Source: Ginglymostoma cirratum
Lineage: Eukaryota
DNA: 64,000 nucleotides
Assembly (NCBI GenBank): GCA_024137785.1
Contig: JAHRHZ010000075.1
Location: 23,119,041-23,183,040, forward strand
Direction of reading: 5' to 3'
In this document: positions 12,204 to 59,845 of the stretch, one piece after another
How the letters are laid out: each line of letters opens with the position of its first letter
How positions within the stretch are numbered: position 1 is the stretch's first letter
The notes under the pieces: generated by a model
Database searches by the model: none
The model's input: the letters and a program-made list of their open reading frames with translations, nothing else
Told to the model about the DNA's origin: nothing
Program-made: the position numbers and the translations under genes

Positions 12204-13246
12204 TCGTTCCAAGGGCCAACTCCCCCTCCCACTCCTTGGACGACATGTCCATCCTGGGCCTCCTGCAGTGCCACAACAATGTTACCCGAGAGTTGCAGGA
12301 ACAGCACCTCATATTCCGCTTGGGAACCCTGCAGCCCAATGGTATCAATGTGGACTTCACAAGCTTCAAAATCTCCCCTCCCCCGAGCGCATCCCAAAAC
12401 GAACCCAGCTCATCCCCACCTCCCTAACCATTCCTCCCATCTCAAGCCCCACCCCCATCTCTTTCCCACTAACATCATCCCGCCCCCTTGACCTGTCCGT
12501 CCTCCCTGGACTGACCTATCCCCTCCCTAACTCCCCACCCACACTCACCTTTACTGACTCCACCCCCATCTCTTTGACCTGAGAGTCTCCTCTCCACCTA
12601 GCTTCTCCTTTATCCATCTTCTATCCGCCTTCCCTTCTCTCCCTATTTATTTCAGAATCCCCCTCCCCTCCCCCAATTCTGANNNNNNNNNNNNNNNNNN
12701 NNNNNNNNNNNNNNNNNNNNNNNNNNNNNNNNNNNNNNNNNNNNNNNNNNNNNNNNNNNNNNNNNNNNNNNNNNNNNNNNNNTGCAGGAACAGCACCTCA
12801 TATTCCGCTTGGGAACCCTGCAGCCCAAAGGTATCAATGTGGACTTCACAAGCTTCAAAATCTCCCCTCCCCCGAGCGCATCCCAAAACAAACCCAGCTC
12901 ATCCCCACCTCCCTAACCATTCCTCCCATCTCAAGCCCCACCCCCATCTCTTTCCCACTAACATCATCCCGCCCCCTTGACCTGTCCGTCCTCCCTGGAC
13001 TGACCTATCCCCTCCCTAACTCCCCACCCACACTCACCTTTACTGACTCCACCCCCATCTCTTTGACCTGAGAGTCTCCTCTCCACCTAGCTTCTCCTTT
13101 ATCCATCTTCTATCCGCCTTCCCTTCTCTCCCTATTTATTTCAGAATCCCCCTCCCCTCCCCCAATTCTGAAGAAGGGTCTCGACCCAAAACGTCAGCTT
13201 TCCTGCTCGGCCTGCTGTGTTCATCCAGCTCTACACCTTGTTATCT
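12204..13246 (+). mobile_element. Neptune-like PLE 3' fragment (GIY-YIG end, pyrimidine-rich UTR, hammerhead-bearing pLTR), duplicated across a 100-N gap
   Basis: EQHLIFRLGTLQPNGIN; core ctgaagaagggtctcgacccaaaacgtc at 13168-13195; ~12294-12682 is repeated after the gap from 12783. Confidence 0.85.
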
Positions 13247-13254
13247 TGGCCTCA

Positions 13255-15100
13255 TTTGATGATCCCTTAAGAATATCTTCTCTTAGTACTGTTATGTCCT
13301 CCCTTATCAAAAGGGCAACTCCCCTTCCTCACTTACTTGTACTTCTGTCATGCCTGTAGCTTCTCTATCCTGCAACATTGAGCTGCCAGTCCTACCTTTC
13401 TTGCAGCCATTTTTCTGCTATGGCTATAAATATCCCAGTCCCCAGAGCCAATCCATATTCTGACCTCATTTGCCTTACCAGTCAGGCCTTATGCATTGAA
13501 ATAAATGCACTTTAAACCAAAAAAAGTCTTTTCCCTCCCTCTACTGTGCCCCTGGCTATCCTGAATAGTAAACTTGCTCTCAATGGCTAATGCATTTTCC
13601 CCTGACTTCTCAATGGCCCCTCCCTTACTCAGACTCTCATCCACCTGCCAAACTAGTTTAAACTCTCCTGGGTAACACTAGCAAATCTTATCACAAGGAT
13701 ACTGGACCCCCTCTGGTTCAAGCGCAACCTGCCTCTCTTGTACAGGTCACCTCTACCCCAGAAGAGATCCCAATGATCCAAGAACTGAATACCCTGCCTC
13801 CTACACCAGCTCCTCAGCTACGCAGTCATCTGGCCTATCTTTCTATTTCTATCCTCACTGGCACGTGGCACTGGGAGTAATCGAGAAATCACTATCCCTG
13901 CTTTTTAACTTCTTACCTAACTCCGGGACCCCAATCCCTTTGTTTATGAATGTCATTTGTACCAATGTGCACAATGACCTCTGGCTGTTCACTCTTCCCC
14001 CTTCAGAACATTCTCAACCGCTCCGACAACCTTGACCCCAGCACCCAGGAGGCAACACATCATCCTGGGGCCTCTTCTGTGGCCACAAGATCTCCTGTAC
14101 CCCTCACAATTTAGTCTCCTTTCAATATTGCTCTGTCTGACTGCATCATCCCTCTCTACTTTGCTCACAGCATCATTAAATAACAAAGCCACACATTCAC
14201 CTGTGATAACAAGCATGGGGCTGGATGAACACAGCAGGTCAAGCAGCATCATAGGAGCAGGAAAACTTGACGTTTCGGGCCTAAACCCTTATCAGAAAAC
14301 CACACATTTACCTGTTCCTGTTTTCCTGTCATTCCTAAATGTCTTCCACACCTCAAGAATTTAGGTCCTGTCAACTTTAGCCCAGAGATGTCCTGAACTC
14401 TGGCACCACTCAGACAACACAGACATCTGGACTTTTTGCTATAGACAATGGTGTCAATCCTTCTCACTGCCTTGTTCCTTACTTGACCTACATTTTTCTT
14501 ACTCTGTTCTCAAGTGGTTTCCTGCATTATGGTGCCATGCTTAGGTAGCTCACCCTTCCTGCATCTCTCACCCTCATCCAAACAAGATGAAAGACCCTCA
14601 AACCTGTTGGGTAATTGCAATAATTGGAGGGTCTTGTGCTCCTGCCCTCTGTAAATGAGGCAGATAAGGAGACCCAGTCACATTCACCTAGCCCTGAATA
14701 CTTGCCCAATCAGATAGTTGAACCCGAAGTGATGTGACTCCCTCTTGGTACAAAAGAATCCTTGATGCATCCTGATGTCTGTAGCTCAGCTTAAAGTCTG
14801 AGCTGAAGCTGCTTGTACTTTAGACATATATTGCAGATACATACTGGACAAAATGGGTATCAATATTGCAACTGTGACTCATTACCTGTCCACCCAAGTT
14901 TAACATGTTCTAAGGAACTATTTAATTATTGTACTTAGCTTTATATTTATTTATGTTCTTATGTATTTTATTAATATGATTTACAGCTGCTATACCAATT
15001 TGAAGCTCAGGAGTTGAATAAACCTTAATCACTTACCAGATGCTCACCAATTAACCAGCTTATTCTCCTGTAGCAGAGCAAGAATCAATTCCTGGAAGCT
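13255..15100 (-). mobile_element. CR1 5' part: ORF1 SGNH-esterase remnants and start of the ORF2 endonuclease
   Basis: Minus-strand remnants CCLLGAGVK and CCLSGARVQD, GTNDI, WGRGDLYKR..LNQRG. The CR1 ORF1 esterase is established knowledge. Confidence 0.65.
14205..14299 (-). mobile_element. ~95-bp solo hammerhead-bearing PLE terminal unit with TSD
   Basis: Core ctgataagggtttaggcccgaaacgtc (14295-14269); flanks ccacacattcacctgt (14189-14204) and ccacacatttacctgt (14300-14315). Confidence 0.8.
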
Positions 15101-20384: not shown

Positions 20385-23170
20385 TAGAACATAGAACAAT
20401 ACAGCACAGTACAGGCCCTTCAGCCCACGATGTTGTGCCGACCTATTATCCTACTAAGATCAAACTACCCTGCGTACCCTACATAACACTATCATCCATG
20501 TGCCTATCCAAGATTCACTTAAAAGTCTCTGACTCCACTACCACAGCCGGCAGCGCATTCCACACGCTCATCACTCTGCGTGAAGAACCTACCTCTGACA
20601 TCTCCCCTGTACCTTGCTCCAATCACCTTAAAACTATGTTCCCTCGCAATAGTCATTTCCACCCTGGGAAAAAGTCTCTGACTATCCACTCTATCTATGC
20701 CTCTCGTCATCTTGTACACCTCTATCAAGTCACCTCTTATCCTTCTTCACTCCAATGAAAAAAGCCCTAGCTCCCTCATTCTTTTCTCATGAGGCGTGCA
20801 TTCCAGTCCAGGCCAGGCAGCATGGTAAATCTCCTCTGCACCCCCTCTAAAGCTTCCAGATCTTTCCTGTAATAAAGTAACTAGAACTGAGCACAATATT
20901 CCAAGTGATGTCTAACCAGGGTTTTACAGAGCAGTAACATAACCTCGCAGCTCTTAAACTCAATTCCCCTGCCAAATGAATGCCAACACACCATACGCCT
21001 TCTTTACAACCATATCAACTTGGGTAGCAACTTTGAGGGATCTATGGACATGGACCCCCAAGATCTCTCTGTTCCTCCACACTGCCGAGAATCCTGCCAC
21101 TAATCCTGCATTCTGCATTCAAATTCAACCTTCCAAAAATGAATCACTTCACACTCTTCCGGGTTGAATTCCATCTGCCACTTCTTTGCCCAGCTCTGCA
21201 TCCTGTCAATGTCCCATTGCAACCTCCAACAGCCTTCCATGCTATCCACAACTCCACTAACCTTCGTGTCATCAGCAAACTTACTAATCCACCCTTCCAC
21301 TTCCTCATCCAAGTCATTCTAAAAATCACAAAGAGCGGAGGTCCCAGAACAGATCCCTGCGGAACACCACTGGTCACCAAGCTTCAGGCTGAATACTTTC
21401 CATCTACTATCACCCTCTGACTTCTATCGGACAGCCAAATTCTCCTGAATCCCATGCCTCCTTACTTTCTGAATGAGCCTACCATGGGGAACCTTATCAA
21501 GTGCCTTGTTAAAATCCATATACACCATATCCACTGCTCTGCCTTCATCGATGTGTTTTGTCACGTCCACAAAAGAATTCAATAAGGTTTGTGAGGCAAG
21601 ACCGGTACCTCTCAAAGCCATGCTGACAATTTCTAATCAAACTGTGCTTTTCCAAATAATCATAAATACTACTCCTAGAATCCTCTCCAATAATTTGCCA
21701 ACCACAGAAGTAAGACTGACCAGTCTATAGTTCCCAGGATTATCTCTATTCCTTTTCTTGAACAAGGAAATGACATTTACCACCCTCCAATCATCTGGTA
21801 CTATTCAAGTGAACAGTGAGGACACAAAGATCAGCAGCAAAGGGGCAGTAATCTCTTCCCCTGCTTCTCATAGTAGCCTTGGGTATACCCTGTCTAGCCC
21901 AGGGGACTTATCTATCGTCATGTTTTTCAAAATTTCTAGCACATCCTCCTTCCCAACATCAACCTGTTCAAGCATATCTGCCTGTTTCATGTTGTCTTCA
22001 CAAATGTCAGAGTCCCTCTCACTAGTGAATACCAAAGCAAAGTATTCAATAAGGACCTCCCCTACCTCCTCTGACTCCACGCACAAGTTCCCTCCACTAT
22101 CCCTGATTGGCTCTACCCTCACTCTGGCCATCTTCTTGTTCCTCACATAAGCATAGAACACCTTGGGCTTTTCCTTGATCCTAGCCACCAAGACTTTTTC
22201 ATACCCGCTTCTAGCTCTCTTAAGTCCATTCTTCAGTGCTTTCCTGGCTACCTTGTAGATCTCTTATAGCCCTGTCCAATCCTTCCTTCTGCAACCTTAA
22301 GTAAGTTTCCTTCTTCCTCTTGACTAGATGTTCCACATGTCTTGTCATCCAAGATTCCTTCATCTTACCATCCCTCCTTTGCCTCAGTGGGACAAACCTA
22401 TCCACCACACGTAGCAAGTGCTCCCTAAACAACCTCCACATTTCTGTTGTGCATTTCCCTGAGAACATCTGTTCCCAATTTATCTCCGCAGTTCTTGCCT
22501 AATAGCATTGTAATTCCCCCTCCCCCAATTAAATACTTTCCAATACCATCTGCTTCTCTCCCTCTCCATGATTATAGTATAGGTCAGGGAGTTGTGATCA
22601 CTATCACCAAAATGCACTCCCACCAAGAGATCTGACACCTGACCTGGTTCATTGCCAAGCACCAAATCCAATATGGCCTCCCCTCTAGTCGGCCTATCTA
22701 CATATTGAGTCAGAAATCCTTCCTGGACACACCTGACAAAATCTGCTCCATCAAAACTATTTGCACTTAGGAGGTTCCAGTCTATATTAGGTAAGTTGAA
22801 GTCACCCATGACAACAACCCTATTACTTCTGCACCTTTCCACAAACTGTCTCCCAACGTGTTCCTCAGTGTATCTGTTGCACAGGAGGTGGGGTCTATAG
22901 AAAACTCCCAATAAAGTGACTGCTCCTTTCCTGTTTCTGACTTCCTGACCTCCCTTTCTGCAGCTGTGATACCATCCCTGATTAGCAATGCCACTCCCCA
23001 ACTTCTTTTACCTCGCTCCCTCCTGCTTTTGAAAAATGTATACCCCAAAACATCCAATAACTATTCCTGCCAGTGTTATCCAAGTCTCCGTAATGGCCAC
23101 AACATCGTAGTTCCAAGTACTGATCCATGCTTTAAGTTTGTCACCCTTATTCCTAACACTTCTTGCATTA
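20385..23170 (-). mobile_element. CR1/HER1 LINE ORF2 (APE endonuclease + RT), internally deleted
   Basis: VVVMGDFNLPNIDW, ILDLVL, GDSDH, KSPGLD, MDFNKALDKVPH, GVPQGSVLGP, SKFADDTK; (ttctatg) tail at ~20385. Confidence 0.93.
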
Positions 23171-25849: not shown

Positions 25850-27425
25850 AACAGGATAACCCAGATAGTCAAGAAATTTAAATATACGTCAGCACAAAAC
25901 CAAGATGGGTCAAACAGCCCCAGCTTCTATGGACTCCCTAAGCTTCTCAGACCAATAGTCTCCTTACCAGGCACACCTACACACAAGCAAGCGAGGGAAT
26001 TACAACAGAGACTTTAACACCTAATTAGCAGATCCCCATAGCCCAAGAATTTCTCACATAGCTCAGGGACACAAAAATTGACAAGTACGAAATCACGATC
26101 TCCTTCGATGTCACAGCACTACTTACATCCATTGACATACCGTTAGCCAGACAGACACTAGTCACACTACTGGAAGGACCAGGAGCACTGACCCTGAACA
26201 CCAGCAACAACATCAGCAAGGACAAATTACTGAAACTACTAGATTTATGCCTCACAATGCACTTCGCGTTCAATGGCCAAATATACAAACAGATCAACAG
26301 CGCACCGATGGGATTATCCATCTCAGGTCACATCGCAAAAGCAGTGATGCAGAGACTGGACATACAGCCCTTCCTATAATCCAACCAAAATTGTGGATAA
26401 GTTACATGGATGACACATTCGTAATAATCAAACACACAAAAGCAAAAGAAACCCACCAACTTGATAACAGCATCTTTGCAAGCATAAAATTCACTAGAGA
26501 GAGGATGAAACAACACAGCTCCCATTCTTAGATATAATGGTAGAGAGATTAACAGTGATTCCTGACCAGAGTGTACAGGAAGGCCACACACATGGACCAA
26601 ATTCTTCAAAAAGCAACCACACCACCATACACAAATGCTGCATTAAGACACTATTTAAATGAGTCATATCACACTACAACACTCCAGAACTCCAGAGAAT
26701 CGAAGAGGAACACCTGCACAAAGTATTTACTGACAATGGATACCCAAGATGTTTTGTCTGCTGATGCCTACAAAAACAAAACAACAGTTAGAGGACAAGG
26801 TAGAACAGAAGACACTAGCAACTCTACCCTATATCAAAAATATATCGGAAATGAAAACCAGACTCTTTAGACCGTGTAGGATCACGATTGTACATAAACC
26901 TACATCAACACCACGTCAAATGCCAAAGACCCCATGCCAACAGTAAACAGGATATACAGAATCCCATGTAGCGGGTGTAACACACATTACATTGGTCAAA
27001 CAGGGAAGAAACTAACGACCAGGATACATGAACACCAGCTGGCAGTAAAAAGACATGAGCAATACACACAGACAATGAAGGCCATGAGTTCGACTGGGAC
27101 AAAGTAACTATACTGGGACAAGTGAACAACATACATGCAAGGGAATTTCTGGAGGTCTGTTTCTCAACACGGGACTCCATTAACAAACACATTGAAATAG
27201 ACCCCGTATACAAACCACTGCTTAAAAAAAAAAAGACAGAATCAGAAGTGATGAGACCCACCACACCAGAGGATCATATAAATTCGGAATTGAGCAGGAC
27301 ACCAATGCCACAATTAGAAGTTGCACTGATGATGTTGCCTAGAATAGTAATGAAACGTCTGCACACCATGGAACAGCTGGATCGGCGAGCAAACAACCAC
27401 TGAATTATACACAACCTAAACCTGT
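25850..27425 (+). mobile_element. 5'-truncated Penelope/Poseidon-like PLE
   Basis: FYGLPK, ISFDVTALLTSI, WISYMDDTF, YRKATHMDQ, HYIGQTGRKL; hammerhead core at 27326-27359. Confidence 0.88.
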
Positions 27426-31449: not shown

Positions 31450-33845
31450 GTCTTTTGGGCCTTTACCTTATTCTACATACTCAAATGTCTTTATTTTTCA
31501 CCAACTCCATAAAGCAAGTTTCCCACCACAACGTGGAACTCTTCTTCCGCCACCTTCACCTCCATGTCATCTTCTTCGATAAAAGACTCCCAACCACCCT
31601 CCGGAGACCCCTTTTCCCACCTCCAACCTTCCTCCTCCTCTTGGAGGCCCCCTGCCGGCCTCTTACCAGCCCTGGGCCACTTCATTGCCAACACAACATC
31701 AACTGCCTTGATTTCTCCACACGCACCACCCCTCGACCCCACCTCCCCCTCAGCGCTTTACTCTTTCCACACCAATCCCCATTTCACTATCAAACCCGCT
31801 GCAAAAGATGAGGCAGTGGTAGTCTGGAGGATGGACTTCTATACCAAAGAGGCCAAATGTCAATTCTCCAACACCACATCCTCTATCCCCCTTGACCATG
31901 ACTGCACCATGGCCCAGCAGCTCCCACACTGTCCATGATCTCATCGCTTTCAATGACTTCCTCTCTACCACCTCCAGGCTTATAGTCCCCCAGCCCAGCA
32001 CTGTCGGATTCTACCTGGTCCCCAAGATCCAGAACCCTAACCACCCCGGGTGACCCATCATTTCTGCATGCTCCTGCCCAACCCAACTCATCTCTTCCTA
32101 CCTTGACTCCATTCTCTACCCCTTGGTCCAGGCATTCCCCACCTACATCTGGGACACAAACCATGCCCTCCACCTCTTTGGTAACTTCAGGTTCCCTGGT
32201 CACCAGTGCTTCATCTTCACTATGGATGTTTAATTCCTAAATGCTTCCATACCCAACAAGGATGGCCTACAGGCCCCCACTTTTTTCCTCTCCAACAGAC
32301 CCATCCATGTGCCTCACCTCAACAAATTTTTCTCCAATTCTTCCCACTTTCTCCAAATTGACAGGGTTTGCCAGGGACAGTCACATGGGTCCCAGCTACA
32401 CCCACCTGTAGGTCAGTTATGTCAAACAGTCCCTCTTCAGTACGTACACCCTTCTTCCAACTTTTCCACCGTTACATCGATGACTGCATTGGTGCTGCTT
32501 CCTGCACCCAGGCAGAACTGCTCCAGTTCATCGACTTCGCTAACAACTTCCACCCTCAAATTCACTTGGTCTATCTCAGAAACCTCCATCCCCTTTCTGG
32601 ACCTCTCAGTTTCCATTTCTGGGGACAGCTTACCTACTGACATTTACGATAAACCCACATACTCCCATCACTACCTAGACTACACGTCCTCCCACCCTGC
32701 ATCCTGCAAAAACTCTATCCCATTTTCCCAATTCCTCCATCACATCTGCTGTAATGAGCAGACGTTCCACTCCCAAGCATCCCAGATTTCCACTTTTTCA
32801 AACAAACAACGCTCTTCACACCTCCATCGCCCGCCTCCCCACCCTCCCCCACCCAGCCAACTGGCATCCAGGCAGCCCTCCACCACACTTCAGCTCTTAA
32901 CTACCAACACCTCCCCCACAAACATAATAAAAAATGTCTCCCCCGTCCTCACTTTCCACCTCACCAGCCTCTACATCCAATGTATCATCCTCAAATACTT
33001 CTGCCAACTCCAATTAGACCACACCACCTGGAACATCTTCCACTCGCTACCCCTCTCTGCATTCTGCAAGGACCATTCGCTTTGCCGCTCCTCAGTTTGC
33101 GCCTCACTCCTCACCAACCACTCCAACCCACCCGGTACCTTCTCTTGTAACCGTAGAAGATGCAACACCTGCACGCACAGCAACTTCGTCGCCTCCATTC
33201 AAGACCCTAAACAGGCCTTCCAAGTGAGACAGAGCTTCACCTGCATCTCCTCCAACCTAGTTTATTTCATCCAGTGCTCCCAATGCTGTCTTTACATCAG
33301 TAAGACCAAATGTAGACTAGGTGACTGTTTTGCTGAGCATCTCCATCTGGCCAGTAACAGCCAACCTAACCTTCCGGTCACCACCCATTTCAACAGCTCG
33401 TCCCACTCCCCCTCCGACACACCAGTCCTCTGCCTCCAGTGTCGTAGTGACTTGCAACACAAATTTGAAGAACACCACCTTATCTTCCACCTGGGCACCC
33501 TACAGCCCGGAGGACTCAACAGAGTTCTCCAATTTCAAATAACCTTGGCAGTCATCCCTCGCCTCCCTTCCAGCCCTGTCTCCTCCCTTCCATTCCACCT
33601 TCTGACCCTCCCTTCCAGCCACCAACTGGATTCATCCCTCCTGTGAACCAACCAAGTCGTACCTACCACCAGTGTCCACCTAACACCACCATTCCATCTC
33701 CACCCCTTCCCCCATTCCTTTATCTGCAGCTCTCTCTAGCCCCACAACCAGTCCTGAGGAAGGGTAATACCCAAAACATTGACTGAGCTTTTTCTCCAGA
33801 TGCTGCTTGGCCTGCTGTGTTTTTCCAGTCTCCTGTTTGTCTACA
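31450..33845 (+). mobile_element. Degraded Neptune-like Penelope element (RT, Cys linker, GIY-YIG, pLTR)
   Basis: IKPAAKDEAVVVW, FYLVPKI, FTMDV, FHRYIDDCIG, IYDKPTYSHHYLDYTSSHP, CNRRRCNTC linker, VYFIQC..YISKT; hammerhead-like motif at 33749-33785. Confidence 0.9.
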
Positions 33846-38557: not shown

Positions 38558-39440
38558 GAAATAATAAGAACTGCCGACACTTCCGCCACCTGCAATCTGA
38601 TCCCACTAGGAAGGTTACATTTCCCTCCCCACCTTTATCTGCGTTCTGGAGGGACCACTCTCTCCACTACTCCCTCGTCCGCTCCAAACTCCCCACTAGT
38701 CCCACAACCCCTGGCACCTTTCCCTGCAACCGCAGGAGGTGCTACACCTGCCTCTACACCTCCCCCCTCACCTCCATCCCAGGCCCCAAAAAAAAAACCT
38801 TCCACATTAAACAGATGTTCACCTGTAATCCGCTAATGTGGTCTGTTGTATCCGCTGTTCCCGATATGGCCTCCTCTACATTGGTGAGACCAAGTGGAGG
38901 CTCATAGACCGCTTTGTAGAGTATCTACGCTTGGCTCGCAACAAATGACAACACCTCCCAGTCGTGAACCACTTCAACTTTCCCTCCCACTCCCTGGACG
39001 ACATGTCCATCCTGGGCCTCCTCCAGAATCGCAACGACACCACCCGGAAACTGCAGGAACAGCCCCTCATATTCTGCCTTGGGAGCCTACAACCCAATGG
39101 TCTCAACGTGGACTTAACTAGCTTCAAAATCTCCACACCTACAGCCTCATCCCAAGCCCAACCCACCCTCTCATCCCCGCCTCCCTGACATGTCCATCTT
39201 CTCTCCCACCTAGCCGCTCCTCCCACCTCACTGACCAATCCCCACCACTACCTACCTGCTATCACCATCCCACCTACCTTCCCCAGCCCAAACCCACCCC
39301 CCCCATTTATTTCAGAGCCCCCTTCCCCTCCCCCATTTCTGAAGAAGGGTCTCGACCCAAAACGTCAGCTTTCCTGCTCCGTTCCTCCAGATCCACACTG
39401 TGTTACCTCTGACTCCAGCATCAGCAGTTCTTACTATCTC
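38558..39440 (+). mobile_element. 5'-truncated Neptune-like PLE with a short inverted 5' arm
   Basis: GTFPCNRRRCYTC, LYIGETK, EQPLIFCLGSLQPNGLN; core at 39339-39366; ends agaaataataagaactgc and gcagttcttactatctct are inverted. Confidence 0.88.
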
Positions 39441-40880: not shown

Positions 40881-41611
40881 GTCTTACGAAGAAAGTTTAA
40901 GCAGCACATTACATCCATCAGTGGAACAGCTCAAATGATTTTCCCATCAAGTGCACAAGGATGTGAATGCCTGCTTGGGCATGAACAAAGATACATTACC
41001 TTCCCAATTTTATTTTACCATATTTCTCCAATGACATGGTAGTGGCCTTTCGACTAAAGAAATTCTGTCCCCTACCTTGCAAATTCAATCAGATCCAGCA
41101 CCTCTCTCTTCTGATTACTGCTTAATATCCTGACCAATAGTCACTTAAGAGAATCACAAGGCATTATGTTCCACAGTCCTTTACAAGAACATATTCATAT
41201 AGGAACAACACAGCAGTAATGCAGATTAATAAGATATTTGGCACCGCTTTAAGCCGGTATTTTTTGGCCTTGGACGTGATGTGTCACGTTCTTGAACAAC
41301 TACAGTCATTTCGTGCAGGTACACCACAGTGCTGTTTGCAATGATGAAATAGCGATATATGAAGGCAAGCTTTCCTCTATTAACATTCCTCTCACTTGCC
41401 TCCCACACAGAAAACCATGTTTACAGAAGGAGCACTTAAATATCATGTTCTAACTGATACGGGATACATACCATAAGGCATAAGAACTATTCAGCATGCC
41501 AAATAGTACACAAAAATAGAATTTAATCAATTTTCACAATGGCAGAAGTAAACACATTGAATTTGGCACGAACCGTATAACGAGTCTAGAATAAATTTTG
41601 ATAGTTAATGG

Positions 41612-42273
41612 AGATAGTAAGAACTGCCGATGCGGGAGTCAGAGATAACAGTGTGGAGCTGGAGGAACACAGCAGGCCAGGGAGCATCAGAGGAGCAGGA
41701 AAGCTGATGTTTCCGGTCGGGACCTTTTTTCAGAAATAGGCTGAAATGGACCTCATTTCTGAAGAAGGGTCCCGACCCGAAACGTCAGCTTTCCTGCNNN
41801 NNNNNNNNNNNNNNNNNNNNNNNNNNNNNNNNNNNNNNNNNNNNNNNNNNNNNNNNNNNNNNNNNNNNNNNNNNNNNNNNNNNNNNNNNNNNNNNNNNNN
41901 NNNNNNNNNNNNNNNNNNNNNNNNNNNNNNNNNNNNNNNNNNNNNNNNNNNNNNNNNNNNNNNNNNNNNNNNNNNNNNNNNNNNNNNNNNNNNNNNNNNN
42001 NNNNNNNNNNNNNNNNNNNNNNNNNNNNNNNNNNNNNNNNNNNNNNNNNNNNNNNNNNNNNNNNNNNNNNNNNNNNNNNNNNNNNNNNNNNNNNNNNNNN
42101 NNNNNNNNNNNNNNNNNNNNNNNNNNNNNNNNNNNNNNNNNNNNNNNNNNNNNNNNNNNNNNNNNNNNNNNNNNNNNNNNNNNNNNNNNNNNNNNNNAGG
42201 GTCCCGACCCGAAACGTCAGCTTTCCTGCTTCTCTGATGCTGCCTGGCCTGCTGTGTTCCTCCAGCTCCACAC
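41612..42273. mobile_element. Palindromic PLE-terminus element with two hammerhead cores (contains a 400-N gap)
   Basis: Cores 41706-41733 (-) and 41759-41786 (+, intact); TSD ttgatagttaatgg (41598-41611) and ttgatagttagtgg (42274-42287). Confidence 0.85.
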
Positions 42274-42414
42274 TTGATAGTTAGTGGTGTTTGTTTGCAA
42301 GTTTTCACTCATCTAACTTTATTGACAGCCTTTAACTACATGTGAAAATACTGAAATGTTATACCTAACTAACTATTTGACAGAACTGCATGCTAACAAG
42401 CATCAGGAAAGATT

Positions 42415-42656
42415 AAAACCGAAAGAACTGCGGATGCTGTAAATCAGGAACAAAACCAGAAGTTGCTGGAAAAGCTCAGCAGGCCTGGCAGCATCTGTGA
42501 AGAAAAATCAGTGTTAATGTTTCAGGTCCAGTGACCCTTCCTCCGAACTCAATTCCTCAGTTTTGAGGAAGGGTCACTGGACCCGAAACAGTAACACTGA
42601 TTTTTCTTCACAGATGCTGCTAGCCCTGCTGAGCTTTTCCAGCAACTTGTTTTTGC
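42415..42656. mobile_element. Palindromic PLE-terminus element, second subfamily
   Basis: Inverted arms around ~42555; cores 42516-42545 (-) and 42563-42592 (+); perfect TSD caggaaagatt (42404-42414, 42657-42667). Confidence 0.85.
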
Positions 42657-42769
42657 CAGGAAAGATTTTTTTTTTAAACTCTCCAACAAAAGATAAATGA
42701 TAAGCTACTTTTCACTTTAAGAAGAATATACATAAATGCACAAGGACAAAATAAACAGTTAGTGATGTG

Positions 42770-46100: not shown

Positions 46101-47655
46101 TCCACGTCGTCACCAATGCAAAATCTAACAGAATAAGTTTTTTAGAAGTGCTACCGACATTGTGTGCTGCACACAGCACAATTATGATGCGAAGGTTAAT
46201 TACGTCCTAGAGAGTTCCTAGTGATTTAAACAAGCCTTCCAAAAGTCTTCCTTGTAAACTGTAATCACAATCTGGTTGACAGCACGAACCACACTGTACG
46301 TTAGTCACCCAAACATCCTTGGGCTTTAGCATCATCAGAAGTCACTGGTGTTGAGGGTAGGAGTGTAACAGTAACTAGCCTTTTGTTTTTTTTTTAAATT
46401 CACCCATGAGTTGTGAGCAATGTAGACAGGACAAGCATTTTTATTGAATTTTTTCACATAACATGCATTCATATGAACTGATGCTCCTGGTACCAAACAC
46501 TAGCTGCTCTGGCATCATGGACACAGGGAAACTAGCAGTATGAAAAACCATAATATTCATTTCATGAGTCTGGTTCAAATGACTTGAATAGAACATTAGA
46601 GTTGTATTAACTTTAACTACAACTATAGGAGATAAGTGGAAATGGGTTGCAAGTCAGAGATAACTCTGCTGTATGTTCCACATGACATATTTGGTATCTT
46701 TACAATTCTTAGTTAGTCCTGCTCATTTTCTTCCTCCTAACGCCAAGAAAGATGAAACACCAAAAAGAATAATTACAGTAAACTAGAAGGTCAATAGCTG
46801 TTATGCTAAAAAATAAATCACAGAATCATCGCTGTAGGTATTGAGCAACTTGGGTGCTGCTGGAACATCACCTAAAGCTACCAGGTCATTATTAAAGAAA
46901 AGTAAGAACTTCTGAGAATTCGAACAAGCAGTGGTTTAGGACAGTGGAAAAGGGAAAAGGGACAAGGGGCAAGTAAATCACAACAAAAACTAGTAGAGGT
47001 AAACACCCAGCAGCAGATCTAAATGCCTGGTTTCTTTCTTCATAGGACCAGGAATATGCCACAAGGTAGTTAAAAATGTCTTTCTTCTGAAAACAGCATC
47101 CAGTCTTTAATGTAATTTAAAGCACTTAATATACTCTGAAACCTTCCAATCAATAGAAGCCTTGGTTAACCTTACAATCAACCATTGGTAATCAAACACA
47201 AGTGAGAAACTCAAAAACATTCATAGTGTAACTCAAATCAAATCTTAAAGCTATCAGCAATAACAGTAGGGATGTTACGTTCACACCATAGTTATGCACA
47301 AATAATTTCATTCAATAAAAAGATTTACTTTAGTTCTCACAAGAACATCTTAGAGAGAAAATTGGGTAAAGAATGAGTAACTGTTTCAGACAAATTTATT
47401 TTAAAATATTGCACGGCTTTCATTACATAAGACGATTCTGAAGAAAGCTATGCCACCCTCATGTAACCAGACAATAAATATTTTCAACTACACAGACTAC
47501 AATGTTGAAGAAATATATTTTCCACAGAATTGTTTTGTACTGTTAACTAGCTTTTAAGTGGCAAAACAGTTTACCCAATCAACAACAGAGTGATTGAAGA
47601 CTGAATGGATCCCAAATACTAAATACTTCACTCAAACCAAATAGGTCCAACTTTA

Positions 47656-48213
47656 GAGATAGTAGGAACTTCAGATGCTGGAGAATCTGAGATAACAAGG
47701 AGTAGAGCTGGATGATCACAGCAGGCCAAGCAGCAGAGGAGCAGGAACCCTGCAGCCCAATGGTATCAATGTGGACTTCACAAGCTTCAAAACCTCCCCT
47801 CCCCCTACCGCATCCCAAAACCAGCCCAGCTTGTCCCCGCCTCCCTAACCTGTCCTTCCTCCCATCTATCCCCTCCTCCCACCTCAAGCCCCACCCCCAT
47901 CTCCTACCTACTAGCCTCATCCTGCCCCCGTGACCTGTCCATCCTCCCTATACTGACCTATCCCCTCCCTAACTCCCCACCTACACTCACCTTTACTGGC
48001 TCCACCCCCACCTCTTTGACCCGCCTGTCTCCTCTCCACCTATCTTCTCCTTTATCCATCTTCTATCCGCCTCCCCCTCTCTCCCTATTTATTTCAGAAT
48101 CCCCTTCCCCTCCCCCATTTCTGGAGGGGGGTCTAGGCCCAAAATGTCAGCTTTCCTGCTCCTCGGATGCTGGTTGGCCTGCTGTGTTCATCCAGCTCTA
48201 CACCCGGTTATCT
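47656..48213 (+). mobile_element. Truncated Neptune-like PLE end with an inverted 5' arm
   Basis: Inverted arm 47656-47746 joined to ccctgcagcccaatggtatc; degenerate core 48121-48148; perfect TSD taggtccaacttta (47642-47655, 48214-48227). Confidence 0.87.
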
Positions 48214-50237
48214 TAGGTCCAACTTTATCCTGTTAAAGAAATTCACTTGGAATGGTGTGCTTTTTTGCAAATGTTTTATCTACACTCAGTTTATTATAAA
48301 ATTTTAAATGCTTTGACACACTAATCAAATTGATTCCATCTACCCTTGGACAAAATTTGGATTTATATAGGCTTTTTAATACCAGTAAACATCCTAAGGT
48401 ACTCCATAATTGCATTATAAATCAGAGCCTGGTATAAAGTTACACAAAGGAGGTATTAAGTCAAAGAATTCAACACAGGCCTCTCTGGCTAAGCGCAAGG
48501 GTCAAAGTAGAAAAGCAAGGAGCAAAGCAGAAAGGAGCAAGCAGAAGCAACCATAAATTAGGGACAAGACAGTTCAAATCATGGCATCTATTATGGCACA
48601 ATTATAATTTGGAATACACACATGATAGAATTAAAGACATTTCAGAGGGTTGAGAGGTTGGAGATGATTGCATAGATAAGGCCCAGGCCATAAAAGAATT
48701 TAAGTACAAGGATTCTAAAATCAAAATGCTATTTGAGCGGGAACCTCGCAGGACGAAGCATGGAGTTATGACGCAGGCAGAGTTTTGGATGGCCTCAAAC
48801 TAAAAATAGGGCATAAATGGGGGAGATCAACCAGGAGTCTGTTTTGAAAACAGTCAAGTCTAGACATAATGAAGGTATGGATGAAGGCTTCAGAAATAGA
48901 TGATACTGCAATGTCAATGTGCTGAGGCAGGGAGAGGTTGACCAATGTCAGAGAGGCAGAGATAATGGTCTTTCATTTTGACAGCCTCATCAAACCAGAA
49001 TTAAACTTCAAAAGCAGTGCCAAGCATTTTAAGCATGGCGTAAAAGCATTTTAGATTTCCAGTTGCACCATTTGTTGGCACTTGTAAGTATCAGGAGGAA
49101 AAAAAAATCTTAGACATTGCAGCATTATTAGTCCTGTTAATGACCACTTATTACCGCAATGCTATCATCTTCACACATTTCACAATTACTCATTGCAAAA
49201 TGCAATTAATTCTACATTGAAAAATGTACTTTCGCACCGTTTAGTGGAATAAAAATGTCAACAAGTAGCCCATCTAAAGTACTAATTACATTTTCGCTGT
49301 TTATGCCCATTAAAGTATATTTAATGGTCAGAGTCTGTAGAATAGTATCAAACTTTACAAAAAAAAAATCAGGACAATATTATTCTCAAATAAAAAGGCA
49401 GATGCTTGCCTGACATGCTGACTAGTTCCAGTAGTTCCTGTATATATTTCAATATTATTTTTACATAGTTGCCAATATTCTTTCCCCTGCCATAATTAAT
49501 TAGAAGAGACTTGCGTGGTTACTATGAGAAATAATTATATCCAAAGAGTTTGAGAGAGAGACTGGTAAAAGCAAAACTCTAATTGTAGAAGGACACAGCA
49601 AATTCTGCTTAGATTTAAATAGGAGGTATATTAGCTGATTAGCATTATGAACTAATACTGAGCAAGCATACCAGCATCTTGATCTTAACAAAACTCAAAA
49701 TCTACAGAGGACCAACAATATGTGGTTCAGTGACTACTATTAAGCCTACAAAGTACAATGACTGAGTTTTGTATACACCAAATAACTAAACCGCTGCACA
49801 ATTGTTAATACAGAAACTGCTGGGTAAAAAATAATGGCGGCCCATCCTCATACCAGCTCAGTATTAGCATGATGTAGTGAAATAGTTGCTGTTCAATCAA
49901 AACAATTAATCTTGATTAAATATTCTAGAAAATCCAGAGGTGGGAAGGAAACACCATCTAGTTAGAAACCATGGGTCCAAAGTTACCCTTCTCTCCCAAG
50001 CATGTATGCCTACCACATAAACTGTCTCAAAATTGCTCATACACTGCAGCCAAAATATTTTCTGTCAATTTATTATGTCCATTTTCTCAAATATGCAACA
50101 AAAAGCTTCTGTATATTTGCTTCAAAATTCCCCAGTTCCCACCCATCCCTTTTTAAGCAAAGGCCCAGAATCCTGATGGGGGATTTTGGAGGGGAGAGCA
50201 GAGATGGAGTAGCAGCAGTGGAAATTCCATTTAATGC

Positions 50238-55870: not shown

Positions 55871-56345
55871 GGTAAAATAATAGTATGAGATAAAAATTAC
55901 AAATTTTAGAAGTACTTAGTATTTTTAGGCCAACTTCCTGCAACGAACAAAAAGAATTATCTGTTCCAAGTTGAATCTGCAAAGCCTGCACTACTCAGAA
56001 CCCAAAAGCCGTGGTTCAGGTCTTAGTCAGACATTATTTTTACGTTAAATGCACTGCTGAACTCTAACTAGTTCTCCTCCCAGATATCTTATGCACAATT
56101 ATCAGCAGTGGACACACTGGGTTAGGGAGAACGCAACACAAGTTCACCACAATGACAAAGATTAAACAGCTAAACAGATCAGGGAGGCCAGCAAACTTCA
56201 AATATCACTATATATGAGATCTCAGAGTAGAATAGCACTGACTTGATTGTTCTTCTGTTTGCTTCTCCCAAAACAGATTCCATCCATGGGTTTGAATCTA
56301 ACAGGCTATTTTGCTCATCCATGGGCAAAACATACTTATGCCCAA

Positions 56346-56999
56346 GAGACAGTAAGAACTGCCAATGCTGGAGTCAGAGATAACACAGTGTGGAGCTGGA
56401 GGAACACAGCAGGCCAGGCAGCATCAGAGGAGTAGGAAAGTTGACGTTTCGGGTCAGGACCCTTTATCAGAAATTTCAGAAATAAGAAATTTCTGAAGAA
56501 GGGTCCTGACCCAAAACTTCGACTTTCCTACTNNNNNNNNNNNNNNNNNNNNNNNNNNNNNNNNNNNNNNNNNNNNNNNNNNNNNNNNNNNNNNNNNNNN
56601 NNNNNNNNNNNNNNNNNNNNNNNNNNNNNNNNNNNNNNNNNNNNNNNNNNNNNNNNNNNNNNNNNNNNNNNNNNNNNNNNNNNNNNNNNNNNNNNNNNNN
56701 NNNNNNNNNNNNNNNNNNNNNNNNNNNNNNNNNNNNNNNNNNNNNNNNNNNNNNNNNNNNNNNNNNNNNNNNNNNNNNNNNNNNNNNNNNNNNNNNNNNN
56801 NNNNNNNNNNNNNNNNNNNNNNNNNNNNNNNNNNNNNNNNNNNNNNNNNNNNNNNNNNNNNNNNNNNNNNNNNNNNNNNNNNNNNNNNNNNNNNNNNNNN
56901 NNNNNNNNNNNNNNNNNNNNNNNNNNNNNNNNTCGACTTTCCTACTCCTCTGATGCTGCCTGACCTGCTGTGTTCCTCCAGCTCCACACTGTTATCTCT
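56346..56999. mobile_element. Palindromic PLE-terminus element with two hammerhead cores (contains a 400-N gap)
   Basis: Cores 56443-56470 (-) and 56493-56520 (+); same arms as 41612-42273. Confidence 0.85.
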
Positions 57000-57589
57000 G
57001 GTGGCCAACATATCTGCACTTTCCATTAAGGAATTAATAAATAATTCTTAGAAGTTATCTAGTTAGTCAAGCACATGCACAATAACAGAAAATGTAATTT
57101 TGCAAAATCATAAATTATAAATGTCATGTTAGACAAGATCACCGCAGCCCATTTCAAAATCCTGTTGATATTTATACACTTTAAATGTCTATCTTTGATG
57201 CCATGAATCAAACGAAACTGGACTGCCCTCTAGAGTTTTACATACTGTAAATCTGCCCAGAAATTTAATTGCTAGACACTTTGAAAGTTCAGAGAACTGC
57301 CCGATGCTTGCAGAGATTCTAGTGAAAAAAATAAGGTTAATTAATCCTTATGCGGCCATACGTGATTCCTGGCCAAAATGGAGATGGATTAATGATCTCT
57401 GCCAATCATATCCAAGCACCATATTATAATAAAAGTGACAAATTAATTGTATACACAACTGGCATTATAACTAGCCTTCATTCAGTGTAGTTTGGTGGGG
57501 AAAATCACCAGGACTTTCGAGAAGGTGTTGCAACTTCAGTCAAAAGTTGTTTGCTCAAACTTTTTTTAAATAAACTGTAAATCAGCATT

Positions 57590-57684
57590 TTCTGAAGAAG
57601 GGTCTCGACCCGAAACGTCAACTTTCCTGCTCCTCTGATGCTGTTTGGCCTGCTGTGTTCATCCAGCTCCACAACATTTTATCT
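57590..57684 (+). mobile_element. 95-bp solo hammerhead-bearing unit with a perfect 15-bp TSD
   Basis: ctgaagaagggtctcgacccgaaacgtc (57592-57619); ctgtaaatcagcatt at 57575-57589 and 57685-57699. Confidence 0.88.
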
Positions 57685-58684
57685 CTGTAAATCAGCATTA
57701 TTTGTTGTGTAATATATTGTTTGCAGGGAGTCCGGCCACATGTCATGCACCACCTCCAACTCAGTAGCCAGTCAATAATCAGTTTACACTGATCTTTTTG
57801 TGGGGAATAATAATAAACACTTTATCTTTCCATGTTGCCTGTGAAACTCTAACTGGACAAAGCTACTTTAGTGATTGCAATGAACTGTTCAAACCCTTTA
57901 TTCGAAAGTCTAGTTGAAATTGTTGATTTTCATCAAGCACCATTCTCATCCTAAACACTCCTGGGATAAAGATCAAATGAATTCACTAGAGTAGGCATAT
58001 TCTCTAACTTTATTTTGTAGGTGGTTATCAACAGGAAGCCAATACTCTGATGTAGAATAGAATTATATAAATGTCAGGAATACAGACTATAGAAATCCAA
58101 GTACAAAACATTGCTGATCTAATCTTAGTATCTGGCTACACGTATGAAGAAAGGCTGCTTAAATGAAGAGTGCTGTTGGTACCAATGGAATCTCTCAATA
58201 AATAAGCAGAAATATACTAAAAAAAAGAAAAATCAAAACATGATTGATGACGGACTAAAATTTCTGATAGCAAAAATCATTGCACATCAACCTGCTAGGT
58301 TGCATAAGCAATTTACAAGAAAACGTGTCATGAGAATTTGAGTACGTCAAAGAAAGAGATGTTGTCAAAAAGCCAAGTACAGTCTAAGTAGCAGTAGTTA
58401 ATTTGAATCATTAAGAAAGCCACATCATGACCAACTTATAAATGTGTCATAACATGCATAGTTAAAGAAACCAGAATCAGCAATCTAAAGCAGAATTCAA
58501 GTCTTTCATCTTGGTTAATATCGCTTTTCCTAAATATCATAGATATTTCTTCATTGTTTAAAACAATTGCCACTTTCTAAGAGGATTAGTATCAGCCTTG
58601 TATGAGGAAGTAAAGGCACCACAGCCCCATCGTAGGGCTCCTCCACGTTTAACCTGAGGGTCACCATACCTTAGGCAAGGTTTA

Positions 58685-59845
58685 ATCAGTCCACACCAAA
58701 AGCCATTCCCAAACTTAACTCGTCCCACCTACCTGCACTTGGCCCATATCCCTCCAAGGCTTTCGTATTCATTAACTTATCCAAATCTTGTTTAAATGTT
58801 GTAATTGTACCTGCATCCACTACTTCCTCTGACAGTTCATTCCACACACAAACCATTGTGTAAAAAACATTTGCCCCTCGAGTCCTTTCTAAATCTTTCT
58901 CCTCTCATCTTAAAAATATACCCCCTAGTCTGGAACTCCTCCACTCTGTGGAAAATGCCCTTTTTATTCACCTTTTCTTTGTCCCTCATGATTTCATAAA
59001 TCTTAAAGACCACCCATCAACTTCCTACGCTCCAGTGAAAAAAGTCCCAACTTATCCAGTCAATTTTTATATCTCAAACCTCCATTCCTGGCAACATCCT
59101 GGTAAATCTTTTCTGAACCCTCTCCAGTTTAATAATACCCTTCCCATAAAAGGGTTACCAGAACTGCAAAGTACTCTAGAAGAGGCCCTCAAAAATATCC
59201 TGTACAACCTCATCATAATGTCCCAGCTTCTATACTCAACGGTCCAAGCAATGAAGGCAAGCCTGCTAAATTCACCTAGTCTGCCTGTGATGCAAATTTC
59301 AAAGAATCATATACCTGAACTACTAGATCTCTGTTCTACAACACTACCCAGGGCCCTACCTTTAATTGTATAAGTCCTGTCCTTGTTTGTATCACCAAAA
59401 TGCAATACCTCATACTTGTCCAAATATAACTCCATCTGTTGTTCCTCAGCCTATTGATGCAATTGATCAAGATCTCTTTGTAGTTTTAGATAACCTTCTC
59501 ATCAATTCACAATAACACCAAAAAAAAAATCAGCATTTTCTGAAGAAGGGTCTCGACCCAAAACGTCAACTTTCCTGCTCCTCTGATGCTGTTTGGCCTG
59601 CTGTGTTCATCCAGCTCCACAACATTTTATCTCTGTAAATCAGCATTATTTGTTGTGTAATATATTGTTTGCGGGGAGTCCGGCCACATGTCATGCACCA
59701 CCTCCAACTCACTGTCATCTGCAAACTTACTAACCATGCCTCCTATATTCTCATACAAATCATTCATATAAAGTGACAAACAAAAAAGTGGATCACCGCT
59801 AATCACAGGCCTCCAGACCAAAAACCAAAACTCCAGCACCACTCC
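58685..59845 (-). mobile_element. CR1/HER1 3' fragment interrupted by a 185-bp insertion
   Basis: YMNDLYENIGGMVSKFADD breaks at 59711; CR1 sequence resumes at ~59520. Confidence 0.85.
59527..59711 (+). repeat. 185-bp near-identical copy of 57579-57763
   Basis: Two differences seen by eye. Confidence 0.9.

Follow-up and report, generated by a model that had tools for sequence, protein, structure and literature searches.

The window analysed here, a 64,000-nucleotide stretch of Ginglymostoma cirratum DNA, contains the coding exons of PCMTD1 on its minus strand and, within one intron of this gene, a short palindrome made of two retroelement ends (Table 1). The two arms diverge from a 17-nt spacer. 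Their complementarity is 91% over the central 43 nt and 95% over 75 nt further out, with 6 of about 88 compared positions differing, and the target-site duplication (TSD) around them matches at 13 of 14 positions. An earlier note, made from the sequence, had described two diverging pLTR ends within one TSD, and this description is confirmed, as is its spacer of about 25 bp, which is the distance in nt from core to core. The same note had each arm start at its CTGA core; the divergence is real, but each arm begins 4 nt before the CUGA. The segment 41598–41797 folds at −97.1 kcal/mol (z = −10.25), and none of 200 shuffled sequences was as stable. As had been supposed, the element lacks coding sequence: the open reading frames listed over it either run through N or are short and due to chance.

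Table 1. Coordinates of the palindrome, its neighbours and its host gene within the window
Feature	Position	Strand	Remarks
Left TSD, 14 bp	41598–41611	+	last base common to element end
Left arm	41612–41737	− (inverted)	sequence, self-alignment
PLE tail, ~31 nt, left arm only	41612–41642	−	alignment of window arms
Inverted pLTR end of left arm	41643–41737	−	ribozyme sense on minus strand, the PCMTD1 pre-mRNA strand
Decayed minimal type I hammerhead, left arm	41695–41737	−	G8A, G10.1A, C11.1G, G16.2A
Junction filler, 17 nt	41738–41754		single occurrence within window
Right arm, first part	41755–41797	+	pLTR end in forward orientation, its minimal hammerhead core intact
Intact minimal hammerhead, right arm	41755–41797	+	CUGA at 41759; helix III palindromic, of 2 bp; cleavage predicted after 41786
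Assembly gap, 400 N	41798–42197		probably a 32-nt overlap
Right arm, remainder	42198–42274	+	no tail; stops ~7 nt before usual short end
Right TSD, 13/14 match	42274–42287	+	boundary-anchored repeat test
Palindromic stub, second family, ungapped	42404–42667		90-nt arms, 9-nt spacer, tail left only, 11-bp TSD
Intermediate form	47642–48227		inverted tail-bearing arm and ~470 nt of PLE 3' end, 14-bp TSD
Third palindromic stub, same family as the palindrome	56345–57000		spacer unlike that of the palindrome; 14-nt overlap at its 400-N gap; TSD not clear
5'-truncated PLE	38566–39440	+	CX4CxxC linker; GIY-YIG remnant with frameshifts and a single stop; UTR rich in C; tail-bearing copy of the same hammerhead arm
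PCMTD1 intron containing the palindrome, 26.6 kb	24067–50663	−	tblastn exon placement
PCMTD1 coding exons (five)	50972–50664, 24066–23959, 17557–17378, 15816–15691, 10409–10035	−	tblastn

A single TSD bounds the whole insert. An equally long repeat occurs in 7 of 10,000 random pairs of flanks from the window. At the mismatched position, 42284, an orthologous contig of the related organism B (run X3) has an A, with one extra A adjacent, which supports 14 bp as the original length of the TSD; on this sequence comparison 14 bp is probably correct. In run X7 the largest listed pile-up of loose ends on the left side falls at 41611 (354 contigs).

The right arm is interrupted by a gap of 400 N. The sequences on its two sides, 41766–41797 and 42198–42229, are identical at all 32 positions, and closing the gap as an overlap gives an element of 186 + 44 = 230 bp, the size that the earlier note had proposed for that case. 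It is conceivable that additional PLE sequence lies in a genuine gap, in which case the locus would be an ordinary partial tandem (inverted pLTR + pLTR ... pLTR) and no 230-bp palindrome would exist. Two direct pLTRs from one insertion would likewise match over 32 nt, such a layout is known for Pen2a_Av (PMC3846280; here and below, statements about cited PMC papers refer to the available parts of their texts), and among the contigs listed from two related organisms none bridges the gap. Several observations speak against a hidden tandem. The other 400-N gap of the window has a 14-nt overlap with a private variant present on each side, and a 389-nt duplication, 99.5% identical, stands on the two sides of the 100-N gap at 12683; since these two element-flanked gaps overlap too, overlap is the likelier reading of 41798–42197. 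Moreover, the ungapped neighbour at 42404–42667 displays the compact form. A hidden tandem thus seems quite improbable, and the 230-bp form is likely for this copy. Two of the four gaps in the window fall inside such palindromes. The repeated segment around the 100-N gap (12294–13171) may itself be either an assembly overlap or a partial tandem of a PLE.

Two features had escaped the earlier note: the arms are unequal, and the left core is mutated. At the left end 38 terminal nt (41612–41649) are unpaired, about 31 nt of them PLE tail, so that the inverted repeat stops short of the true end of the element. The cores of the two arms, identified by descriptor and folding so that cleavage is predicted only, differ at 4 of 43 nt, and every difference falls at a conserved position. 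The position numbers G8, G10.1, C11.1 and G16.2 were assigned according to what we take to be the standard hammerhead numbering. The same numbering is employed in PMC4209133. These four changes in the left core, listed in Table 1, contradict the proposal that the element yields a ribozyme from either strand. A scan with Rfam gave no match at the gathering score across the window.

The intact right hammerhead is predicted to be buried within the long hairpin, as the earlier note had anticipated: in folding calculations the pairing probability of its helix II is 0.84–0.99 for the arm alone and 0.0 in the hairpin context. Minimal PLE hammerheads require a same-strand dimer and cleave poorly in vitro (PMC4209133), and helix I is here only about 2 bp. 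The ribozyme of the palindrome is not expected to cut, and the hairpin is probably a by-product of insertion. G8 is lost in three of the four minus-strand cores (41705–41733, 56442–56470 and 14267–14295) versus none of ten plus-strand cores, seven of which carry damage at other positions; the sample is small and the pattern was spotted post hoc. The copies at 56–60 kb, moreover, sit upstream of the first coding exon of PCMTD1, and on all these grounds the pattern is a lead only.

Because PCMTD1 is on the minus strand, the dead core has sense orientation in its pre-mRNA, which would also contain the long hairpin. Long intronic hairpins resemble ADAR substrates, and by analogy use of this one by ADAR or Dicer, which the earlier note had raised, is plausible. 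That the host uses the hairpin within PCMTD1 pre-mRNA, for editing or as a source of small RNAs, and that selection has kept it, is a more demanding proposition and a very improbable one: its intronic position, its strong fold and the presence of its ends in two related organisms would suit such a role, but the 6 differences among about 88 arm positions accord with neutral decay, the orthologous flank in X7 having 13 changes in 390 nt. In two RNA runs the depth was zero on the unique flanks 41250–41573 and 42330–42383; the RNA reads therefore come from other copies. With that origin of the reads, neither run lists any site at which molecule starts or ends are numerous, and the counts of A>G/T>C places in RNA (15/24 and 5/9) resemble those in DNA contigs (16/19 and 13/18). 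Most PLE bodies and solo stubs of the window are antisense to PCMTD1.

In organism B (X3), contigs run from either flank into the element ends, and one X7 contig does so from the left flank; the insertion thus predates the splits from these organisms. No empty site with a single TSD copy was seen, both related organisms carrying element ends here.

The arm sequence recurs many times in the window, and at 13166, 39335 and 48117 it is preceded by a C-rich tract (47–55% C) and the end of a coding remnant. The body of the 5'-truncated PLE (38575–39134) aligns in three pieces, at 70–81% identity, with a whale-shark protein (P0002) that has a Pfam GIY-YIG match above the cut-off and a weaker RT match. 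A direct Pfam scan of four decayed PLE frames of the window gave no match, so the GIY-YIG assignment rests on homologues; those named for another PLE frame of the window come from sharks and rays, which points to a cartilaginous fish as host. A CX4CxxC linker is found in the frame at 38575–38826, and partner bodies also carry CxxC inside GIY-YIG. A CX2-5CxxC linker before GIY-YIG marks the Neptune/Nematis type and is missing from Penelope/Poseidon (PMC8557442). That the same arm ends GIY-YIG-coding remnants with CX4CxxC argues that it is the 3' pLTR end of an endonuclease-bearing (EN+) PLE of Neptune type, and the PLE origin suggested by the earlier note is borne out. An RT core of this family was not found in the window. 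At the 5' junction of the truncated PLE (38564–38582) about 15 nt of inverted tail can be made out by eye, and the same copy also bears the tail at its 3' end.

The window holds a continuum of related forms: solo stubs, palindromes, a copy in which an inverted arm is attached to about 470 nt of body, and copies with body only. Four insertions have two substantial arms, namely the palindrome, its ungapped neighbour, the intermediate form and the third palindromic stub, and in all four the tail is on the left, inverted arm only. The 3' ends of the window arms fall into two groups about 31 nt apart, a long end in 4 and a short end in 7; the forward arm of the palindrome stops 7 nt before the short end. 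The four two-armed insertions also share one orientation. The ungapped neighbour lies 117 bp from the palindrome, has damage in both hammerhead cores, and its left end is present in organism B. A clear TSD of 11–17 bp was found in 6 of 10 insertions tested, two of the six representing one local duplication, and no clear TSD in the other 4. Across insertions the TSDs measure 14, 11, 14, 15–17 and 16 bp, and their sequences are unrelated. The solo stubs at 57575–57760 and 59523–59710 have common flanks, indicating local duplication and not separate insertions.

Is such a palindrome built anew at each insertion, or is it copied as a unit? The earlier note had proposed a non-autonomous PLE derivative and had pointed to the spacers as the place to look for a replicating unit. 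All three window palindromes have different spacers. The filler of the present one matches only itself at up to two mismatches when both strands of the window are searched. Templating of the filler from the arms is supported for one spacer of the three, that of the 56-kb copy (28 of 5000); for 41738–41754 it is not significant, 984 of 5000 random stretches being equally good, and the remaining spacer gives 309 of 5000. At three of three diagnostic sites the arms match within an element and differ between two elements of the same family, a pattern that arm-to-arm conversion could also yield. The joints of related genomes are varied as well. Among those listed (15 of 1381 joints and 12 of 487 fillers), left arms break at 41669, 41670, 41675, 41698, 41707 and 41713, while the partner right arms start at 41753–41756 with differing fillers, though paralogues will have produced many of these joints through effects of alignment. 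One joint, 41707 to 41754–41756, recurs among those listed, in 17 contigs of X3 and 13 of X7; a hot spot, a re-copied subfamily or the effect on alignment of a change at 41708, private to the present palindrome, may account for it. Because junctions differ between copies, both in the window and in related genomes, the sequences argue that the palindrome is most likely built at each insertion, being neither a self-copying unit nor a MITE; a minor subfamily with a shared junction may nevertheless exist.

A self-copying unit would be either a palindromic master or a solo stub of about 100 nt that spans helix I to the short end; like a SINE, it would be transcribed and then re-inserted in trans with the help of PLE proteins. 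Some features of the data would fit it. Seven of ten body-free arms of the family begin within about 1 nt of helix I, a boundary sharper than random truncation predicts and one that the mechanism proposed below leaves unexplained. In run X3, 265 contigs have mixed AT-rich flanks at 41756; two solo stubs (14205–14298 and 57589–57687) have TSDs of their own; and one joint recurs. The number of contigs aligned to the 1.6-kb stretch is very high (116,116 for organism B and 117,659 for organism C, the two families together), and pLTRs alone suffice in cis (PMC3846280). The differing spacers and many different joints, the diagnostic sites that agree within and not between elements, and the continuum from solo stubs to body-linked copies inside one window all stand against a replicating unit, which we regard as improbable.

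A DNA transposon is a still poorer explanation. Class II MITEs have terminal inverted repeats at their true ends and a fixed short TSD characteristic of the superfamily. The palindrome resembles them in its size, hairpin shape, lack of coding capacity, high copy number and flanking direct repeats, the features that would speak for a MITE moved by a transposase. It differs in lacking a terminal inverted repeat at its true ends, given the 38 unpaired nt on the left, in the variability of TSDs in the window (11–17 bp, of unrelated sequence), and in its ancestry, the arm being the terminus of GIY-YIG-coding retroelements. A MITE reading is effectively refuted and has a negligible claim on the data; the earlier note was right not to take the element for one.

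The arms are the hammerhead-bearing 3' end of the element, present once inverted with the tail and once forward without it, inside one TSD and with a copy-specific junction. We favour, with a probability of roughly three in four, a dead-on-arrival insertion of an EN+ Neptune-type PLE that was cut down to its two ends. In the mechanism that we envisage, the GIY-YIG endonuclease would cut both strands about 12–14 nt apart at an AT-rich site, and both 3' ends would prime reverse transcription on the element RNA. One cDNA would begin at an outer start and include the tail, the other at an inner start without it. Both would halt at the 5' edge of the hammerhead, where an ATT motif adjoins the long C-rich tract; this junction may cause the stop as a stall, a cut or a point of microhomology. 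The cDNA ends would then be joined through a short filler, and fill-in would yield the TSD.

Given an insertion of this kind, two-ended priming is the probable route and fold-back copying an unlikely one. The arms of the intermediate form at 47642–48227 each hold sequence that the other lacks, tail on the left and body on the right, which argues against simple fold-back; for the palindrome alone, the fold-back or self-priming proposed in PMC3846280 is possible. Ribozyme-cut RNA was also considered as a template and was rejected because most arms begin about 30 nt upstream of the cut site. The biochemistry on which the mechanism draws is that of a Poseidon element, PAc of Anolis carolinensis, whereas the partner here is of Neptune type. 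With PAc, reverse transcription starts at two sites a tail apart, both strands are cut and extended, ATT is preferred, and insertion proceeds without ribozyme cleavage (Frangieh et al. 2024, PMC11167929). The two 3' ends a tail apart and the ATT beside the element end are common to both systems; PAc belongs to a different PLE clade, and inverted products were not reconstituted in the part of that study available to us. A bolder scheme, which we offer tentatively and think unlikely, would make the hammerhead 5' edge a programmed stop or cut, with stubs of ~100 nt and palindromes of ~230 nt as the main product of two-ended priming, some stubs being re-copied like SINEs and introns purging sense cores.

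The anatomy is already known for PLEs, and this locus is an unusually short example, its shortest form. Among PLEs it is standard to find a 5'-truncated copy in inverted orientation, with a tail on one side (PMC8557442, PMC3846280), and a tail of 30–40 bp is reported in PMC8557442 and PMC11167929. The EN+ PLEs of Neptune/Nematis type in PMC8557442 and PMC3846280 share with the palindrome the head-to-head inverted pLTR end, the hammerhead in the pLTR, a one-sided tail of 30–40 nt and a single, length-variable TSD enclosing the entire insert, and are likewise troublesome in short-read assembly. They differ in that here nothing remains between the ends, both arms stop at the hammerhead 5' edge, the junction is a 17-nt filler and not a clean palindrome, and the copies are very many. 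Opposite-strand pairs of minimal hammerheads 100–700 bp apart occur in Schistosoma mansoni (Cervera and de la Pena 2014, PMC4209133). The metazoan PLE hammerheads of that paper have the same CUGANGA, bulged base, G-C-closed helix II and loop-less palindromic helix III, whereas the present cores are 25 nt apart, with a helix I of about 2 bp and one core dead; the available part of that paper makes no mention of sharks. The suggestion that the element might be undescribed thus gives way before these precedents.

Non-LTR retrozymes are likewise non-coding, PLE-derived and equipped with a type I hammerhead, and they occur in one chondrichthyan genome (Li, Clavereau and Pollet 2026, 10.64898/2026.07.22.740005, in the part available). 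They are head-to-tail tandems with two same-strand ribozymes; the palindrome is head-to-head with one intact core and, provided that the gap hides no tandem, lacks the at least two same-strand hammerheads in tandem by which retrozymes are recognized. The string "Palindrom" has no occurrence in that paper. The available parts of PMC5753468 and PMC9004415 contain nothing on palindromes, and no paper on palindromic PLE stubs in sharks was found in the open literature, most subscription papers and the notes of Repbase and Dfam lying outside the search. Pattern scans returned no match in viral contigs and none in metagenomes.

As a single locus the palindrome is an ordinary decayed insertion. The stubs as a class may be of greater use: these genomes contain great numbers of them, and from each one two 3' ends, two stops, a filler and a TSD can be read. 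The origin of the inverted ends of PLEs is called unresolved in the available parts of the PLE papers cited, and a genome-wide tally of stubs could decide between two-ended priming and self-priming. Programs that search for MITEs may also be misled by such stubs, and short-read assemblies may break at them.

In body-linked copies a pyrimidine tract followed by CAG lies about 25 nt upstream of the hammerhead (13136–13147, 39305–39315 and 48087–48098) and resembles a 3' splice site. In Penelope from Drosophila virilis the end of an intron lies at helix I (PMC4209133). Eighty RNA reads, from other copies, pass the splice-like site unspliced. The window also holds the 3' end of another PLE at 26900–27405 (+), with a GIY-YIG-like frame discerned by eye and a distinct intact minimal hammerhead at 27326, and a PLE remnant at 31500–33845 (+), whose open frame of 470 codons covers RT thumb through GIY-YIG and which has a hammerhead of its own at 33754. 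A remnant of a LINE-type endonuclease (Pfam Exo_endo_phos_2) lies at 22483–23007 on the minus strand.
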